Source: Prorocentrum cordatum (taxonomy: Eukaryota). From it: 64,000 nucleotides of DNA. The stretch lies in contig CAUYUJ010000002.1 in the NCBI GenBank assembly GCA_963575745.1, forward strand, positions 248,001-312,000, given 5' to 3'. Position numbers and translations under genes: made by a program. The notes beneath the pieces were generated by a model that ran no database searches, had not been told where the DNA came from, and saw only the letters and a program-made list of their open reading frames with translations. Positions 28,661-64,000 of this stretch are shown piece after piece (positions within the stretch are counted from its first letter, which is position 1; every line of letters begins with the position of its first letter).

Positions 28661-30382
28661 AGGTTTTGGCTCGGCTCGGGGTCGGCCCGAAGCGGCCCGA
28701 ATCTCCCACGGCGCGAAAGCATAGGCCGTCGCGGTCCGTTCTGGCCCGTAGAATCCCGTAGAATCCCCCCCCTTCCTCCCTCCTCCCTCCTCCTTCCTCC
28801 CTCATGCTTCCTCCTATGTGTTAGAACATATGAAACAACAGATCGCCAGGTTTTCCCAAGGAGTCCCAGTTTTTGATAAACTTGTTCACAGCGCTCATAT
28901 AGTTAGACTCGCGAGGTTTGAATTCGAGCGAAGGGTAGACGATCCTCTCCCACGACCTCCGTGTCATCCCGCGGTCATGGGGCCCTAGCCAGTTCCCCGT
29001 CTTTGTCGCGTCGCCCTCCCTACTCTTCGCTCGGCCCCGTCTTGGGTCACGCATGCCCCTGGCGGTCTTCGGGGCGGGGCGCTAGATTTCGGCGATGCTC
29101 CGAGAGTCCACCTCGCCCCGATTTCAAGTCCCTTGCGGGAATTTCTTCGAACCTCGAGTAGATCGAGGTAGTTTAGTCGATCAGAGGTTCTTCGGAGCGC
29201 TTGTCTTGTCTTGTCGTGTCTTCTCTTGTGTTGTCATCCTTCCTCCCTCCTCCCTCCTCCTTTCTTCCTCCTCCTCCTAAGGGCAACGTTGCTCGGCGGC
29301 GATCCCGCGGGGGGGGAAGCGGGCCTTCTCAGATCGGGGGCGGCCAAGAGGGGGGTGATGACTAGGGGGATAGCATGGCCAGGGCCATGGGATCCCACCA
29401 CAATTCACGGTGCCTCTTCATGTTTAAATCGTCCCCGCCCCCCCCTGGGCCGCACGCGTGCCGCCGGCCATGGTTCCCCCCCCCTTCTGGACACACCCCT
29501 TTTGGCCTCCCCCGACAGAACGCCGTTAAGAAGGCCTCCTCCTTCTCACTTCCCCCCTCGCTCGCCGCCGAGTCACGGTCAGCGTATGACGTATAGCGTG
29601 TACTGCCAGCGCTTTTCGAAGAGCGGATCGGGCGAGCACGTTGAGTGCAACACCTGTTAGCACGTATTCGAGGCATTCGCTGAGCCCCAAGAGGAGGTGC
29701 AGAGGGTTTGAATGGGGGTACGCTTAGCGTCGTCTTTTGAGCGTCCGTTTACCCAAGGCAAAAAAAAACACGCAAAGCGAACGTTCACACTAATCGTATG
29801 TAGCACCGCATAGCCTCCAGCCCGATGTCCTGCCAGTGGTGAGACAGAATGGGCTCCGGTTGGGATGCTTCAGGGGCAACGTTAGGGGCAAGGAGGCCTC
29901 CCCTCGAGGTTTTCGGACGTCTTCGTCGGTTCTTGGCAGCTTTGCGCCTCGACGAGAGCGTTCCCCCAGGTTCCCGTGTCGTCCCGAAGGGCCGCCGGAG
30001 GCCCGATTTTTTGGTTGACCCGGAAATTGCCAGCCTTCGAAGAGATCAAGGGCAACGATCAGGTGGGGGATAGGTTCAGAGGGGAAGAGTATCGACCCCC
30101 AATCGCCCATTCATCGCCGATTGGGGCCTGATTGCCAACCCTCCCCTGATCGTGCGTTTTCGCTATCGGGGTCTCGTCGCCGATTTATCGGCAACGTATC
30201 GCCGACTCAAGATCGATGCTTCCCCCCATTGAGCTGTTTCCCTTCTATCGTTGCCCCTCAGAAGATGGGCAAGGTTGTGAGTAGCGAGGATGAAGAGTGG
30301 GGAGCTGGGAAGCAACAGCAGGCGGATTATCGGAGTGAGAGGAGGAGGAGGAGGAGGAGGAGGGTGAGGAGGTCTAAACGAT

Positions 30383-31732
30383 TATGATTATGATGTTGAT
30401 GGTGTCGATTATGATGATGATGGTGATGGTGATTGTGATGGTGATTGCGATGGTGATTGTGATGGTGATGATGATGCCCATGTTGTTGATGATGATGATA
30501 ATGCTGCTGATGATGCTGATGAGGATGATGATGATGATGATGACGGTGATGGTGATAATGATGCTGGCGGTGATAACGATGGTGTTGTTGATGATGATGT
30601 TGATGCGGATGATGAAGATAATGCTGATGACGAAGACGATGCTGCCTGCTGATGATTATGACGACGATTATGTTGTCATTGATAATGGTGCTAGTCATGC
30701 TGATTGTATTCCGGACGGTGATGCTTATGATTATGATGTTATTGATGTTGATGATGATGATGAGGTTGATGATGCGAGTGATGATGATGATGTTGGTGAT
30801 AACGACGATACGTATGGTGGTGGTGAAGAGGGTGGCGACGATGATTGCGATGCTGATGACGGAGAATATGACGATGATGATAATAATGATGATGCCGATG
30901 ATGATGTTGATGATGCTGATGAGGATGACGATCATAAGCATGAACATGATCATGATCTTGATCTTGCTGATGCTGCTGATGCTTGTGATCATGGTGATGA
31001 CGATGAGGACGACGACGACGACGATGATGATGATGATGATGCTCATGCTGATGATGATGATGATGAGTATGTTGATGCTGATGCTGGTGCTGATGCTGAT
31101 GCCGATGCTAATGCTGGTGCTGATGCTGCGGATGATGATGGTGATGTTGATCATGATGATACTGATGATGATGATGATTGTGATGATGGTGGTGATGGTG
31201 CTGGTTATGATGATGATGATGATGATGATGATGGTGGGTGCGACGATGATGTGGATTATGACGATGACGACGACGATGATGATGATGACGATGATGATGA
31301 TGATGCTGATGATGCTGATGCTTCTGATGATGAGGATGATGCTGCTGATGATGATGATGATGATGATGCTGATGCTGCTGCTGATGATGATGGTGATGAT
31401 GGTGATGATGAGGCTTATGATGATGATGTTCTGATAATGATGATGATGATGGTGGTGCTGATGAAGATGATGCTGATGCTGATGATGATGAATGTGCTGA
31501 TGATGATGCTGATGATGATTATGCTGATGATGATGAAGATGATGCTGATAATGATGGTGATGCTGATGGTGCTGATGCTGATGATTATGATGATGATGAC
31601 GATGAGTATGCTGATGATGATGATGATGATGATGCTGATGATGATGATGATGGTGCTGATGATGATGAGGTTGTTGCTGATGATGATGATGATGGTGATG
31701 ATGGTGATGGTGATGATGCTGCTGCTGATGAT

Positions 31733-31763
<31 letters not shown>

Positions 31764-31779
31764 CTGATGCTGCTGATGA

Positions 31780-31813
<34 letters not shown>

Positions 31814-31871
31814 GGTGGTGGTGATGATGATGATGATGATGATGATGCTGATGATGATGATGATGATGATC

Positions 31872-31960
<89 letters not shown>
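30383..31960. repeat. Long degenerate (GAT)n microsatellite
   Basis: Direct reading; pure GAT at the right end. Confidence 0.97.
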
Positions 31961-32449
31961 CGGGTATGGGTTTAGTGATCTGGGAGCAGTGCTCGGCTCA
32001 GCCACCTTGCATTCGGCGTGCACGGTCGCGAGGGCCCCACGGGGTCCAAGCCAGACCCACCCGAGTCGCCAGACTGGGGCAGCCCCCCGCTATGACCCCT
32101 AGCGTCAGAGGTCACCAGGAGCATCGCGGTCAGGCCGCCCCCTTGCGCCCGAACCCTCGCGGGCTCGGCGGACGCGGGAGCCCACGGACCCCGACGGAGG
32201 ACCGCCGACGGCCGCCAAGGGGCCGTCGCCCGAGCCCTCCGAGCAGCGCCCAGCGAGCTTGGTTTTCGCGGGCGCGGTAAGCAGCGTGCGGCACACGGCG
32301 CACGGCGCCGCTCGGCCGCCCCTCCTCTTGAGGCGGTGGCCGAGCGGGCAGCGCGCGGTTTAGGGAGACTCCTCGGCCTCCGCTGGTGCTGCTGGGGCCG
32401 CAGTCGAGGGGTCGGGCTCCGCGACCTTCCCCTCGGGTGGCTCGGCGGC

Positions 32450-58244: not shown

Positions 58245-60280
58245 TGTCGTCGTCGTCATCGTTTCGTCCGTGGTCCGTCGTCCGTCGTCCGTCGTCCGTC
58301 GCCCGTCGTCCGTCGTCAGTCGTCCGTCGTCCGTCGTCGTCCGTCGTCGCCTTCGTCGTCGTCCGTCGTCCGTCGTCTGTCGTCCGTCGTCGTAGTCGTT
58401 CGTCGTCGTCGTCGTCGTCGTCCGTCGTCCGTCGTCGTCGTCGACGTCGTCGTCGTCGTCATTGTCGTCGTCGTCGTCGTAGTCGTCGACTGGCACCCAG
58501 CCTCCGTCGTAAGTCGTCGTTGTCGCCGTCGTACGTCGTCCGTCGTCCGTCGTCGTCGTCCGTCGCCCGTCGTGCGTCGTGCGTCGTGCGTCGTGCGCCG
58601 TCCGTCGTCCGTCGTCCGTCGTCCGTTGTCGTCCGTCGTCGTCGTCGTCCATCGTCCGTCCTCCGTCGTCCGTCGTCGTCGTCGTCGTCGTTGTCAGTCG
58701 TCGTCGTCGTCTGGCGTCCAGCCTCCGTCGTAAGTCGTCCGTCGTCGTTGTCGCCGTCGTCCGTCGTCCGTCGTCCGTCGTCCGTCGTGCGTCGTCGTCG
58801 TGCGCCGTTGGTCGTCCATCGTCGTCGTCGACCGTCGCCGTCGTCGTGATCGTCGTCCGTCATCGGTCGTCCGTCGTCGTCGTCCGGCATCCAGCCTCCG
58901 TCGTCTGTCGTCTTTTGTCGTCATCCGTCGTCTTTACCGTCGTTGTCGTCCGTCGTTTGGCGTCCTGCGTCGAGCGTCCGTTGTCCGTCGTCTTTCGTAT
59001 GTCGTGTTTCGTCCGTCGATCGTCGTCCGTCGTCTGTCGTCTGTCGTCGTAGTCGTCCGTCGTCGTCCACGTTGTCGTCGGTCGTCGTCGTCCGTCGTCG
59101 GTCGTCCTTCGTCCGTCGTCCGTGGTCCGTCCTCGTCGCCATCGTCGTTGCCGTCCGCCGTCCGTCGGCCTTCTTCCGTCGTCAGTCGTCCGTCCGTCGT
59201 CCGTCGTCTCCTTTGTTGTCGTCGTCCGTCGTCGTCGTTGTCGTTGTCGTTCGACGTCCGTCGTCCGCCGTCCTATCGTCCGTCGTCATCCGTTGTCGTC
59301 TTCGTCGTCGTCGTCGTCCAGCGTCGAGCGTCCGTTGTCCGTTGTCCGTCGACCGTCGTCCGTCGTCGTCGTCGTCGTCGTTTCCGCCGTCGTTGTCGTG
59401 GGTCGCCGTCCGTCGTCCGTCGTCCGTCGTCCGTCGTCGTCCGTCGTCCGTCCCCGTCGTCGTTGTCGTCCGGCGTCCAGCGTCCGTCGTCTTGTCCGTT
59501 CGTCCGTCGTCCGCCGTCCGTCGACCGTCGTCCGTTGTCGTTGTCGTCGTCGTCGTCGTTGTCTTCGTCGTCGTCGCTCGTCTTCCGTCGTCTGTCGTCC
59601 GTCGTTCGTCGTCCGTCGTCCGTCGTCCGTCCTCCATTGTCCGTCGTCCGTCGTCCGTCGTCCGTCCTCTTCGTCGTCGTCCGTCGTCCGTCGGGCTTCT
59701 TCCGTCGTCCGTCGTCGTCCGTCGTCTTTCTCGTTATCGTCGTCGTCCGTCGTCCGTCGTCCATCGTCCGTCGTTCGTTGTCCGTTGTCCGTCGTCCGTC
59801 GTCCTTTCTCGTCGTCGTCGTCGTCGTCCGTCGTCCGTCGGGCTTCTTCCGTCGTCCGTCGTTCGTCGTTCGGCGTCCGGCGTCCGTCGTCCGTCGTCAG
59901 TCGTCCGTCGTCCGTCCTCGTCGTCGTCGTCATCGTCCGTCGTGCGTCGGGCTTCTTCCGTCGTCCGTCGTCCGTCATCGTCCGTCGTCTTCCTCGTTGT
60001 CGTCGTCGTCCGTCGTAGTCGTTGTCGTCCATCGTCGTCCATCGGCCGTCCGTCCATCGTCCGTCGTCCGTCGTCCGTGTCCGTCCGCCGTCCATCGGCC
60101 GTCGTCCGTCGTCCGTCGTCCGTCGTCGTCCGTCGTTCGTCGTCGTCGTCGTTCGTCTTCCGTTGTCTGTCGTTTGTCGTCTGTCGTCCGTCGTCCTTCG
60201 TCCGTCGTCCGTCGTCCGCGTCGGCGTCGTTGTCGTCCGCCGTCGTCGTCGTCTGTCGTCGTCGTCGTCGTCGTCGTCGT
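58245..60280. repeat. ~2-kb (CGT)n/(CCGTCGT)n compound simple repeat
   Basis: Direct reading. Confidence 0.97.
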
Positions 60281-61771
60281 TCTCGCCTCCCCCGCTGCCA
60301 CCGCCGCCGCCCCGCGAGAGCACCCCTACCCTGGCGGCGCGACGGCCAGGTGAGGCAGGAGGGGACGGATCCGGTTCGGGTCTGGAGGTTTCGGGGAGGG
60401 TTCGGGTTGGCGCTCGGTGGGCTCCGCGACCTTCTGGCTGCGGACATGGCACGACGGGAGGTTCCTGGCAATTTTTGCCCTCCAGGGGCCCTCGCCAGAC
60501 CCCAGGACCGTCCCAAATCGACTTGTGATGAATACCCGGGTGCAGACCTTCGGAGGGCACGGTGCTCGAAGTGAGGCTCGAAGATCACGACGTCGGAGAT
60601 CAGGGCAGGGGAGGGGAAGGATCGGGGGCTCGTGGAGGGGGATTGGGGCTAGGAAGCGAACGCAGTTGGATGCTCACATCGGGCGATCGCAAGCATGTAT
60701 TAAGGGGGCGTGGATTAGCGACGGCACCCGTTTCCCAGGGGAAACGCGAATTTCCGCCGCCGAGCGAGGCGGCACTGGCCGCATTTTGGGGAGTGCACCT
60801 CCTCCGATCCATGGATTTGGCGACCGCGCGCCAAATCCATTGATCGCTAATCCATGTTTGCGCGCCCCCGATCACAGTTCTCTCTTCCTGGGGCCGCTTC
60901 GATCGACTTCCACTTAAGTGCCGCAACAAAAAACGGGCCGTTTTCGCCGGCATTGGTGCGTAGGCTCTCCTCGTCAGGTCACGCGTAAGCGCCCTCATCT
61001 TCAACGTGCCGCTCTTGTGGCCCGCGTAAGCCGCGGCGTCAGGTCGTTGTATCATCTCGCATAAGACCCGTGTTTGCTCGTCGCTCACTTGTACGTCCCC
61101 CCGGAGGCAGGGATGGTTCGGGCCAGAAGTGCCTCCTGGCACCCTCAGGGTCAGCTGGCGCCGAGGGCTGGCCCATTCTGCCCTCACGGCCAGTCTTCGG
61201 CCTCGGCTTCGATGCTGGACCGTTGCGTGCCCCTTGGCCATGGTGTCTCGCAAACTGTCTGATCTGAGGCAGTGTCGCCGTCGGCAACGAACAACATTCA
61301 GGAGGGAACAAAACACACAGACACAATTAACAGTCGATTTCCCAGAAATACATGTGGGAAGTGGAGGGGAAGACAAAAATCCAGAACATATGGGAAACTA
61401 TGCGGAATATTGTTATTTGTATGTATTTATTTGTGTGTCCTTGGGTGCCTTGAAACATGGAAGTGCCTTCTCGATTTTGGCCTCTGGACCACGTTTCTGT
61501 GGACCCCTTTGCTGTCAAGAGCCGCTCCTGACGGGGCCGGGTGGACCCCGAGAGCCGGCTCCGTGCCAGTCTGGGGTCGGAGGGGCGGGGCGACCGTCGA
61601 CCCGCGAACCTTTAGGTGGGCTTGTTTTCCACCGCCACCACCTCCCCCTCCTCCTCCTCCTCCTCCTCGTCCTCCTCCTCCTCCTTCTCCTCCTCCTCCT
61701 TCTCGTCCTTCTCCTCCACCTCCTCCTTCTCCTCCTCTTCGTCCTCCTCCTCCTCCTCCTTCTCCTCCTCC

Positions 61772-61793
61772 TCCGTAGCCATTTTGGCTCAAG
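61772..61793 (+). other. Complete genomic copy of the dinoflagellate spliced leader (DinoSL), retroposed
   Basis: TCCGTAGCCATTTTGGCTCAAG is a 22/22 match to the DinoSL consensus DCCGTAGCCATTTTGGCTCAAG. It is followed by ATG rather than a GT donor, so it is not an SL RNA gene. Confidence 0.97.
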
Positions 61794-64000
61794 ATGGGTT
61801 GCTCGGGGGGCTTTCAGCCTCCGTGCTTCACTGGATCGCACTACCGTGCGCAGGCAAGAGTGTGTGCACTCTGGCAGTCGGGCGGCCTCCTTCCAAACTC
61901 ACGCGCGCCATGGCGGGGAGCGGCGGCGTGGGTGCTGGGCGTGGGGGAGGCGGCCGCGCGGCGTGGCCTGCGAAGTGGAAGTGCTCGGTGTGCGACTACT
62001 ACAACTTCGCCGAGAGGGCGTGCTGTCGCAAGGGGTGCCAAGCTGCGGGGTGGCCAGCGCCGCGGCAGCTGGGCGCCTTTCCTCCGCTGCGGGGGTGGCC
62101 TGCAGGCGGCGGCGGTGGTGGTGCTCCTGGCGGCGCTGGCGGCGGGCGCGGCGGGCGTGGGGCAGGCGGCGGCAAGCCTCCCACACGTGCCCCGTGGTGG
62201 CGAGGCGGAGAAGGTGGCGGCCGTGACGCTGGTGGCGCCGTGGAGCTCAGCGAGGAGCAGCGCAGTGGCTTCGTGTGCATGGCAGAGGCCGACTTCGCCC
62301 TCACCGCCGCGCTCCTGGCCCCGAAGGTCCGCGAGCAGCTTCTGCAGGCACGGAGGCTGCGTGAGGGCGGACTGGGGGCCGAGCTGTCCAAGGACAAGAC
62401 GGTCAAGGCGGCCCAGGTGCAGGCGGACGCCAAGGTCTTGCAGGTCAAGAAGTTGGAGGGCCAGCTGGAGCAGGCAAAGGCCAAGGCGGTGGCGGCCATC
62501 AACGAGTCGGCCAGCCTCGCGGACAAGTTGGTGCTGCTGCGGAAGGAGTGCGACGAGGCGGCGGCCAAGGCACGCGAGGCGCTGGCGGCTCAGCGCACCA
62601 GGGTGGCGGCCGAGGAGGCTGAGGCGGCGGCAGCAGCCGCCGAGCCGAGAGCAGCACCAGCAGCCTCCCTGGAGTCGATACAGGAGGCGATCGGCGGCTT
62701 GTCGAGGGACGAGATCGCGAAGCCCGGGAAGGTGCTTGCGGAGCTCAGCGGCATACCAGGCGCCGCCGCCGCAGCGTGGGCGCCTCCCCGTGCGCCTGTG
62801 GCAGCGGCGGTCCCTGTGCCCTCGGCGGTGCCAGCAGCAGCGCAGCAGGTGGACGCTCCCAAGGAGGAGGGGCCTGGCGTGTCGCAGGCGGCGCAGCAAG
62901 CGTGGCAGGACATCACGTGCGGGATTGAGGACCCCGCCAAGAGGGAAGCAGCGGAGCAGTTGCTGGGCGACGCCAAGAAGATGCGGACGGAGGTCAAGCA
63001 GATGGAGGAGGAGTCCTAGCAAGAAGTGTGGGGTCTGGAGGATCTGCACGGTCAACGTCAATGCGTTCAGCAACCTGGGAAAGTGCATGGCGGTGAGTGA
63101 GGTGCAGGACTGCGACGCCATACTAGTCCAGGAGACGAGGCTCCTGGAGGGAAGGAGCAGTGATGCGGAGGCGCAGCTCCGCAGCCAAGGGTGGCGGGCG
63201 AGAGGCACGCCTGCAGTGCCGTCAGCGGCAGGAGGCCTCAGCACAGGAGGCCTCCTCACCATGGTGAGGAGGAGCCATGGCATGGCGGAGGTGCAGGACC
63301 AGCAGGCAGCGGTGCTGGTGGCAGGGCGAGTGCACCTGTGTTGGGTGTCAGGCGTGCTGAGCAGCGGCTTCTTGCTCGCCAACCTCTACCTGGAGGCGGG
63401 GGTCGGCCTCAACGATGGCAACGTGGCCAGCCTCAGGAGGCTGGCAAGGAGGTTGAGGCAGTGCCGCAGGGACTTCGTGGTGGGCGGCGATTGGAACCTC
63501 ACGGAGGAAGAGTTGCAGGCAGGCGGGGTGCCCGACATGTTCGACGGCAAGGTGGTCAGGCCCGCCTCGCCCACGTGTGCAGCGTCGGGGAGGACCATCG
63601 ACTTCTTCCTGGTGTCCAGGGGGCTGGCTGCGCTGGGTGTGCGGGTGGTGGAGGCCTCGCCAGTGTACCCGCACTCGGCGGTGATCCTCGAGATCCGCAG
63701 GCAGCAAGAGGAGGAGCGCTTCAGGCTGGTCCAGAAGCCGCGGACCTTTCCTGAGGTTCGGCCGCAAGGGTGTTGTGAGAGAGACCACGGCAGCAGCTGG
63801 AGGCAAGCCAGGATGAGGGTGCAGGAGCAGCTCGCGTCGGTGCTGAGGTTCGAGGGTGAGGCCGCAGCGAGGAGCACCCCACGTGCTGAGGAGGAGGCCC
63901 CTCAGCCCAGCAGCAGTGGTGGCGCAGCAGGTCAGCGCACAGCTAGAGCTGGCCAGGAGATTCCCAGGCCAGTGAGGGGCAAGGGAGCTGAAGGGGTGTC
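61794..64000 (+). CDS. LINE ORF2 (pol), open to the window end; apurinic/apyrimidinic-like (EEP) endonuclease domain at ~63036-63700
   Basis: Manual translation gives the APE motifs in order: WRICTVNVN, AILVQETR, LANLYL, FVVGGDWN, RTIDFFLVS, YPHSAVILEI. I found no in-frame stop between ATG 61794 and 64000, which explains its absence from the ORF track. The endonuclease call is strong; use of 61794 as the start is inference. Confidence 0.85.
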   Translation, partial: MGCSGGFQPPCFTGSHYRAQARVCALWQSGGLLPNSRAPWRGAAAWVLGVGEAAARRGLRSGSARCATTTTSPRGRAVARGAKLRGGQRRGSWAPFLRCGGGLQAAAVVVLLAALAAGAAGVGQAAASLPHVPRGGEAEKVAAVTLVAPWSSARSSAVASCAWQRPTSPSPPRSWPRRSASSFCRHGGCVRADWGPSCPRTRRSRRPRCRRTPRSCRSRSWRASWSRQRPRRWRPSTSRPASRTSWCCCGRSATRRRPRHARRWRLSAPGWRPRRLRRRQQPPSREQHQQPPWSRYRRRSAACRGTRSRSPGRCLRSSAAYQAPPPQRGRLPVRLWQRRSLCPRRCQQQRSRWTLPRRRGLACRRRRSKRGRTSRAGLRTPPRGKQRSSCWATPRRCGRRSSRWRRSPSKKCGVWRICTVNVNAFSNLGKCMAVSEVQDCDAILVQETRLLEGRSSDAEAQLRSQGWRARGTPAVPSAAGGLSTGGLLTMVRRSHGMAEVQDQQAAVLVAGRVHLCWVSGVLSSGFLLANLYLEAGVGLNDGNVASLRRLARRLRQCRRDFVVGGDWNLTEEELQAGGVPDMFDGKVVRPASPTCAASGRTIDFFLVSRGLAALGVRVVEASPVYPHSAVILEIRRQQEEERFRLVQKPRTFPEVRPQGCCERDHGSSWRQARMRVQEQLASVLRFEGEAAARSTPRAEEEAPQPSSSGGAAGQRTARAGQEIPRPVRGKGAEGV
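61910..63019 (+). CDS. LINE ORF1-like protein (369 aa): RanBP2-type zinc finger, Gly/RGG-rich region, coiled coil
   Basis: Starts at GCCATGG. WKCSVCDYYNFAERACCRKGC (61976-62038) fits W-x-C-x2-C-x3-N-x6-C-x2/3-C. GGRGGRG follows, then an Ala/Glu/Lys helical region (VKKLEGQLEQAKAKAVAA...). Stop TAG is at 63017-63019. The ORF-track start at 61616 lies in upstream microsatellite flank. Confidence 0.85.
   Translation: MAGSGGVGAGRGGGGRAAWPAKWKCSVCDYYNFAERACCRKGCQAAGWPAPRQLGAFPPLRGWPAGGGGGGAPGGAGGGRGGRGAGGGKPPTRAPWWRGGEGGGRDAGGAVELSEEQRSGFVCMAEADFALTAALLAPKVREQLLQARRLREGGLGAELSKDKTVKAAQVQADAKVLQVKKLEGQLEQAKAKAVAAINESASLADKLVLLRKECDEAAAKAREALAAQRTRVAAEEAEAAAAAAEPRAAPAASLESIQEAIGGLSRDEIAKPGKVLAELSGIPGAAAAAWAPPRAPVAAAVPVPSAVPAAAQQVDAPKEEGPGVSQAAQQAWQDITCGIEDPAKREAAEQLLGDAKKMRTEVKQMEEES

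Follow-up and report, generated by a model that had tools for sequence, protein, structure and literature searches.

An ORF2 frame open across the whole of ORF1 behind the spliced leader of a LINE copy in Prorocentrum cordatum

A retrotransposon copy in the dinoflagellate Prorocentrum cordatum carries, directly behind a DNA copy of the spliced leader, an AUG whose frame stays free of stops through the whole of the first open reading frame (ORF1) and runs on into the endonuclease of the second (ORF2). The window, which is the whole stretch of DNA analysed, comprises 64,000 nucleotides (nt) from assembly GCA_963575745.1 (contig CAUYUJ010000002.1, positions 248,001 to 312,000, forward strand), and the element lies at 61,772-64,000. 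The locus holds the first 2.2 kb, counted from the 5' end, of a dinoflagellate long interspersed nuclear element (LINE) of the APE type. The copy has decayed slightly and belongs to a young family with two ORFs and many copies. In this family ORF1 and ORF2 stand in tandem, as usual, and meet at a stop-start junction; the open upstream frame is an unexplained addition. Openness of the +1 frame over ORF1 by chance is unlikely. A tentative reading, given just short of an even chance, is that some ribosomes initiate on the AUG next to the leader and that the open ORF2 frame is maintained for them. The anomaly in the sequence is real; what it means has to be judged from the statistics of one copy and from sister copies seen only in part.

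In the leader-capped RNA the first AUG (CAAGAUGG; 61794..61796, +) lies 22 nt from the cap; its context, CAAGATGG, has A at -3 and G at +4. A TAG within the leader, at 61776, closes the frame on the upstream side, and from 61779 the frame stays open up to 63998, the end of the window being reached before any stop. This is the +1 frame of ORF1 and the frame that carries the APE endonuclease, and it supplies 408 stop-free codons (61794..63017, +) over the 116-nt leader region and all of ORF1. The next ATG, at 61910 (GCCATGG), starts ORF1, which ends with the TAG at 63017-63019. The window copy has no further ATG in the ORF2 frame until 63087, downstream of the TVNVN motif (63048-63062). An earlier note on this DNA had described this arrangement of ATGs and frames, and every coordinate was confirmed, as was its list of stops that lie outside the ORF2 frame: the TGAs at 62224, 62362, 62620 and 62926 fall in the third frame, and the TAG at 63017 ends ORF1.

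The openness was compared with chance by shuffling the synonymous codons of ORF1 with its protein and codon usage held fixed (20000 replicates), and by permuting whole codons (also 20000). The synonymous shuffle, which the earlier note had proposed as a check, predicts 6.46 stops in the +1 frame, where none is observed, and the controls are almost never stop-free (1 of 20000; P(0)=5e-5). Whole-codon permutation leaves the frame open in 8 of 20000 replicates, and an exact calculation that takes codon-junction bias into account gives P of 2e-5 to 6e-4 for the window copy. The second frame is therefore stop-free beyond what the protein and codon usage of the first frame predict, which is one mark of dual coding. 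Shuffling ORF1 by thirds gives P of 0.46, 0.013 and 0.0034, so that the stop-avoidance signal comes from codons 113-369, with nothing to be learned from the Gly-rich first third. Among the 23 sense stretches of at least 650 nt in the window with two open frames, that of the LINE is the only one improbable both ways (4e-5 and 1e-4), every other having P of at least 0.08 in at least one direction.

The signal is visible in individual codon choices. ORF1 has 60 codons with T at position 2; eight of these (Leu, Val or Ile) precede an A-initial codon, and all eight end in C. No NTG codon stands before an A-initial codon (0/36, Fisher 4e-5), and after NTG arginine is written CGN (4/4) and serine TCN (3/3), with AGC found only after CTC. 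In the ORF2 part, which serves as a control, NTG precedes A in 8 of 44 cases, there are 7 NTG+AGN pairs, and the +1 frame holds 9 stops vs 12.1 expected. Overall, ORF1 uses CGN for 19 of its 25 arginines (76%) and TCN for 9 of 14 serines; the ORF2 part uses AGR for 26 of 37 arginines (70%) and AGY for 17 of 25 serines. Avoidance of splice sites was rejected as the cause of the missing GTG-A, given that GTGAG is present in the third frame of ORF1 and GTGAGT in ORF2. Out-of-frame ATGs are not significantly depleted in ORF1 (0 vs 1.3 expected, P 0.23).

Sister copies were viewed through Logan contigs from four public runs of four studies, with 45 to 76 contigs aligned per run, positions 61626-61782 repeat-masked during the alignment, and 40 of the 143 variant places listed. 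Contigs from three runs span the stretch from the leader through the ATG into ORF1, and contigs from two runs cross from ORF1 into ORF2. The ATG at 61794-61796 is free of listed variants, and an X5 contig (61783-62147) shows 0 differences. A family-majority background was made by putting 17 or all 22 of the best-supported listed variants (61918-63029) into the window copy. ORF1 stays intact and the ORF2 frame has 0 stops, so the stops or loss of the ATG in sister copies that the earlier note had named as contrary evidence do not appear among the 22. None of the 20 listed variants within the overlap makes a stop, a result without weight, since a random change would create one in only 3.9% of cases. 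A subfamily about 10% diverged over 62707-62956 is present in three runs, and its variants are outside those listed.

On the majority background, NTG stands before A in 0/38 cases vs 7/18 (Fisher p 1.4e-4), and the synonymous shuffle yields a mean of 4.1 stops with P(0) of 0.0013. The exact P was computed with three codon-usage references, ORF1, ORF1+ORF2 and ORF2, of which ORF1's own usage is the conservative one, as the avoided choices are already contained in it. With ORF1+ORF2 usage P is 1e-4 to 1.1e-3, and with ORF2 usage 8e-6 to 5e-5. Values on this background are weaker, since two ATA codons and one Leu-Thr pair occur only in the window copy.

A scheme can be built on the observed anatomy, the junction AUG of the family and the codon-choice bias of ORF1, in which selection and translation of the overlap are what we infer. 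The LINE copy would have been reverse-copied into DNA from an RNA bearing the 22-nt spliced leader. On such an RNA, some ribosomes would start at the first AUG (61794), which has a good context, and selection would keep its frame open such that they run on into ORF2 rather than ending inside ORF1. The product would be an ORF2 protein with an unconstrained, Arg-rich N-terminal extension of ~409 residues. ORF1 would be read from the second AUG (61910) by leaky scanning, and ORF2 could also be reached via the family's junction AUG (UAG C AUG) by termination-reinitiation, as at SART1-type stop-start junctions. To judge from the sequence, leaky scanning from the leader-adjacent AUG is possible as a second route to ORF2. 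A more specific version would make ORF1 wholly dual-coding, with leaky scanning on the 22-nt leader setting the ratio of ORF1 to Arg-rich extended ORF2 and with the junction AUG as a second, reinitiation route; this version is quite possible, if somewhat doubtful.

A number of results, in this paragraph and those that weigh the alternatives, count against the reading that the frame is kept open for ribosomes from the leader-adjacent AUG. The overlap product has 23.3% Arg and a net charge of +94, and it is predicted to be disordered (mean pLDDT 39.4). Fifteen of the 20 listed variants in the overlap change an ORF2-frame residue (5/20 are synonymous), 10/20 are synonymous for ORF1, and the third-position changes of ORF1 alter the overlap-frame residue in 10 of 10 cases. 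In ORF2 proper 14 of the 20 listed variants are synonymous, suggesting that the variation reflects selected lineages, and changes synonymous for ORF1 are as frequent as those synonymous for ORF2. Neither amino-acid constraint in the second frame nor the reduced synonymous variation that the earlier note expected across copies is seen among the 20 variants. Relatives of the overlap product were likewise not found by a word-index search (0 matches) or by blastp against 151 relatives (0 matches); none of the listed phmmer matches extends upstream of residue 323, and among 48 relatives with long N-terminal parts none has an Arg-rich N-terminus (highest 15.9%). Homology to the basic linkers of single-ORF relatives was considered and rejected, given that the phmmer extensions (residues 323-410) vanish in composition-corrected blastp. 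If the overlap frame is read, it is its openness that matters, not its sequence.

The start of ORF2 bears most directly on the alternatives. At 63022 the window has A and the sisters T (T depth 16.7/16.7, 105.6/110.7, 19.2/19.2 and 5.88/5.88 in the four runs), which gives an ATG at 63021-63023 (K>M), one base after the TAG of ORF1 and with A at -3. The junction (63017..63023, +) thus reads TAG C ATG in sister copies and TAG C AAG in the window, where the AAG at 63021 is a private change, one of several, that cost the window copy its ORF2 AUG. Among the closest longer relatives, ORF2 starts with MWRFCTLNIN in P0002 (46% identical) and with MTVNVT in P0026, and P0004 starts 18 residues upstream of the nuclease. 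Given the family AUG and relatives that start at the nuclease, upstream entry to ORF2 is not needed. The earlier note's claim that ORF2 has no usable AUG, and hence requires such entry, is not supported, the missing AUG being peculiar to the window copy; overall, its interpretation is partly supported. In its strict version ORF2 lacks a start codon entirely, and the AUG next to the leader is the sole entry, yielding an overprinted polymerase with ~410 extra residues. This holds for the window copy, which has no in-frame AUG between 61794 and 63087. However, the AUG is missing only through the private A, with T in nearly all of the depth, and this version is very improbable. Against the reading of a frame kept open it counts that a strong-context first AUG would be expected to give more ORF2 than ORF1, whereas LINEs usually show the opposite. 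In run X3, a 1-nt deletion at 61805, in a G-run 11 nt after the ATG at 61794, has 12/50 of the depth and takes the AUG out of the ORF2 frame; it may alternatively be a homopolymer error. An ordinary tandem LINE would express ORF2 only from the UAG-C-AUG junction, by reinitiation or scanning, with the open frame due to chance and unmodelled codon context, the post-leader AUG incidental and the window copy dead. This alternative, which is plausible if rather doubtful, draws on the family ATG, the starts of the relatives and the lack of constraint or homologues for the overlap product. On the majority background, the P obtained with ORF1 usage is 2.6e-3, and with junction bias it is only 1e-2 to 2e-2 (1.1e-2 to 1.9e-2). 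Codons ending in C are generally preferred before A-initial codons in the element (non-T2 codons of ORF2, p=0.002), dual-open stretches such as the 23 above are common in this GC-rich DNA, and the finding was picked post hoc for its open frame, a choice that enriches chance cases. On the other side stand the absence of NTG before A (0/36 in the window copy or 0/38 on the majority background, vs 8/44 in ORF2), an Arg and Ser codon-family choice after NTG that fits stop avoidance in 7 of 7 cases, a P that, with ORF1+ORF2 or ORF2 usage, is still 1e-3 to 8e-6 on the majority background, and the coincidence that the open frame is that of ORF2 and begins at the first AUG of the RNA.

Ribosomes could instead enter the ORF2 frame by a +1 frameshift during translation of ORF1, either early or at the terminal UCC UAG C, to give an ORF1-ORF2 fusion. 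ORF2 does lie in the +1 frame of ORF1, and the end of ORF1 resembles the UCC_UGA of antizyme. Stop avoidance is measurable only from ORF1 codon 113, so any earlier entry fits, and a shift early in ORF1 would explain the open frame downstream, whereas a shift at the stop codon does not require 1.1 kb of open frame. No shift site, early or other, and no stimulator was identified; the RNA fold at the junction (minimum free energy -44.8 kcal/mol, z -1.87, with 9/200 shuffles as good) is not clearly exceptional, and nothing clear emerges in the leader region (z -0.39). A further point in favour comes from P0029, a Prorocentrum cordatum gene model of another LINE family, which has the W-x-C-x2-C zinc finger, Gly-rich stretch and Lys/Glu/Ala helices (coiled-coil) of an ORF1-like part, then ~110 residues rich in R/P/S/W, and then the nuclease. 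In sequence it looks as if this model passes from the ORF1 frame to the open ORF2 frame upstream of the nuclease. As a eukaryotic gene model, however, P0029 may bridge the frames by a predicted intron, and frameshifting is unlikely.

The 5' end of the element is a DNA copy of the 22-nt dinoflagellate spliced leader (61772..61793, +). The 21-mer CCGTAGCCATTTTGGCTCAAG matches at 61773-61793 with 0 mismatches, the sole match in the window and one that 0 of 100 shuffles reproduced, and the preceding T at 61772 completes the 22 nt. A relict leader motif, CCATTTTGGCTCAAG, is quoted in PMC12014239. To judge by record length vs aligned length, sister contigs go 11-16 letters further than 61783 and so reach roughly to where the leader begins, and no contig of the four runs aligned to the flank at 61500-61625. 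A 22-nt leader copy thus marks the 5' boundary of the retroposed unit, as in DinoSL relicts.

Directly 5' of the leader lies a pyrimidine-only (TCC/CTC)n microsatellite of ~145 nt (61626..61771, +; repeat-masked). The tract is taken as flank of the element. Together with the AGs in and at the end of the leader, it resembles a ready polypyrimidine tract and 3' splice acceptor. Such an acceptor could serve renewed trans-splicing of a read-through transcript; a target-site preference and chance are both possible. In X2 and X3, one contig each shares the end of the leader and a further 33 nt (11 codons, counted from the ATG at 61794; 61783-61826) and then diverges for >220 letters, which suggests that a second sequence family shares this start. 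The 30 loose letters displayed for these divergent contigs hold no stop in phase with the ATG.

ORF1 (61910..63019, +) encodes 369 amino acids with a RanBP2-like zinc-finger motif, a Gly-rich stretch and long helices. The Pfam match to Zn_ribbon_RanBP has an E of 0.012, below the cutoff, and a single-sequence AlphaFold model places helices at 115-155 and 163-244 with a mean pLDDT of 54. Codon-position composition in ORF1 is like that of ORF2. Sister proteins include P0001, a 96% identical fragment, and P0152; a protein atlas search with ORF1 gave no usable match. An antisense ORF of 513 amino acids lies over ORF1 (61841-63382, -) and was dismissed as trivial: ORF1 is without TTA, CTA and TCA codons, and the antisense frame is open in 20000 of 20000 shuffles.

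From ~63036 the ORF2 frame encodes WRICTVNVN and then a domain of the endonuclease/exonuclease/phosphatase type, the N-terminal APE endonuclease part of ORF2 (63021..64000, +), which ends with the window. Pfam Exo_endo_phos matches residues 420-623 with an E of 0.0048, below the curated cutoff, and phmmer with the ORF2-frame protein finds 1438 proteins at E<=1e-3, the best at 1.5e-71. The relatives P0010 and P0026 carry RVT_1, and P0026 also RNase H. The nuclease part and these reverse transcriptase-bearing relatives identify the locus as the front of a LINE whose reverse transcriptase lies beyond the end of the window, as does its 3' end, where a tail and target-site duplication would be expected. 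An N-terminal endonuclease in ORF2 and a dispersed, multi-copy family with the same ORF1-ORF2 arrangement mark the element as an APE-type LINE. Against longer proteins the ORF2 part gave only one match, at 29%. A search of genome contigs for sisters returned only two bacterial loci (L001 and L002, 27-29% identity), and no usable copy came from metagenome contigs (searched with protein and DNA pattern) or viral contigs (two proteins, two patterns).

The closest short ORF2 fragments (P0005, P0006, P0007, P0101 and P0147; 63-97% identical) come from the EukProt set of Pyramimonas, a green alga. The leader of the element is of dinoflagellate type, and label and content of this set may disagree. 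Many distant single-ORF relatives, among them P0010, P0019, P0020, P0022, P0039, P0055, P0061 and P0149, have a G-E-A-x-N-P-G-P-like motif near the N-terminus, with an NPGP end like that of 2A peptides. Its spacing differs from that of the canonical 2A motif. 2A sequences in non-long-terminal-repeat (non-LTR) elements are a subject of PMC3894237. Elsewhere in the window, an A-free (CGTCGTC)n-type repeat of 1.5 kb (58734-60350) has two or all three sense frames open and supplies the longest dual-open stretch (58850-60350); it is mainly because of this repeat that the length of an open frame is, by itself, a poor guide in this DNA. The only other Pfam match among the 78 long open frames of the window is a partial CitMHS (citrate transporter) at 30378-32099 (+), with an E of 2.6e-7, just below the cutoff.

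How ribosomes gain access to ORF2 of LINEs is an open question (PMC3894237), and no treatment of it for dinoflagellate LINEs was found in the literature searched. If the frame is indeed kept open for ribosomes from the leader-adjacent AUG, the family would offer an uncomplicated and testable example of control by two AUGs on a trans-spliced mRNA, and it would bear on the expression of the retroposition machinery, given that dinoflagellate genomes are full of leader-tagged retrocopies. Should the openness be due to chance, this is a normal LINE copy headed by the leader, and its ORF2 start is dead. In the literature searched on dinoflagellate LINEs and the spliced leader, and on ORF2 overlap and leaky scanning in non-LTR elements, no account was found of an ORF2 frame covering the whole of ORF1. 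If ORF1 is indeed dual-coding throughout, this would be the first retrotransposon we know of with ORF1 overprinted in full by ORF2.

Overlapping genes of viruses use leaky scanning from two nearby AUGs to read two frames. The LINE is like these in having separate frames opened by its first and second AUGs, in its long dual-open stretch, and in the basic, disordered character of the overprinted product. Unlike these, its frame is without amino-acid conservation, runs into a gene with an AUG of its own, and is known from sequence alone. Leaky scanning is named among viral strategies in PMC3894237. The antizyme genes offer a second comparison, as UCC_UGA is the +1 shift site in most of them (PMC5009743). 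ORF1 of the LINE likewise ends in UCC and a stop, with ORF2 in the +1 frame, but the stop is UAG rather than UGA, and no stimulatory element was found.

Leader-tagged retrocopies of dinoflagellates have been published (PMC6050394, PMC12014239). As in DinoSL-relict retrogenes, the DNA copy of the 22-nt leader is the exact 5' end of the retroposed unit. In the available portions of those reports, however, the leader is considered as a tag of retroposition, and translation of ORF1 and ORF2 or an ORF2 frame that spans ORF1 is not treated. In SART1, a UAAUG at the stop-start junction of ORF1 and ORF2 provides for translational coupling (PMC3894237). The LINE described here is like those of the SART1 type in that ORF1 lies upstream of an APE-first ORF2 and, in the sister copies, the ORF2 AUG stands beside the ORF1 stop with no real spacer. 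It differs in that its junction is non-overlapping, with a 1-nt gap, in that its ORF2 frame is stop-free for 1.2 kb upstream through ORF1, and in that its RNA starts with a trans-spliced leader that is followed immediately by an AUG in the ORF2 frame.

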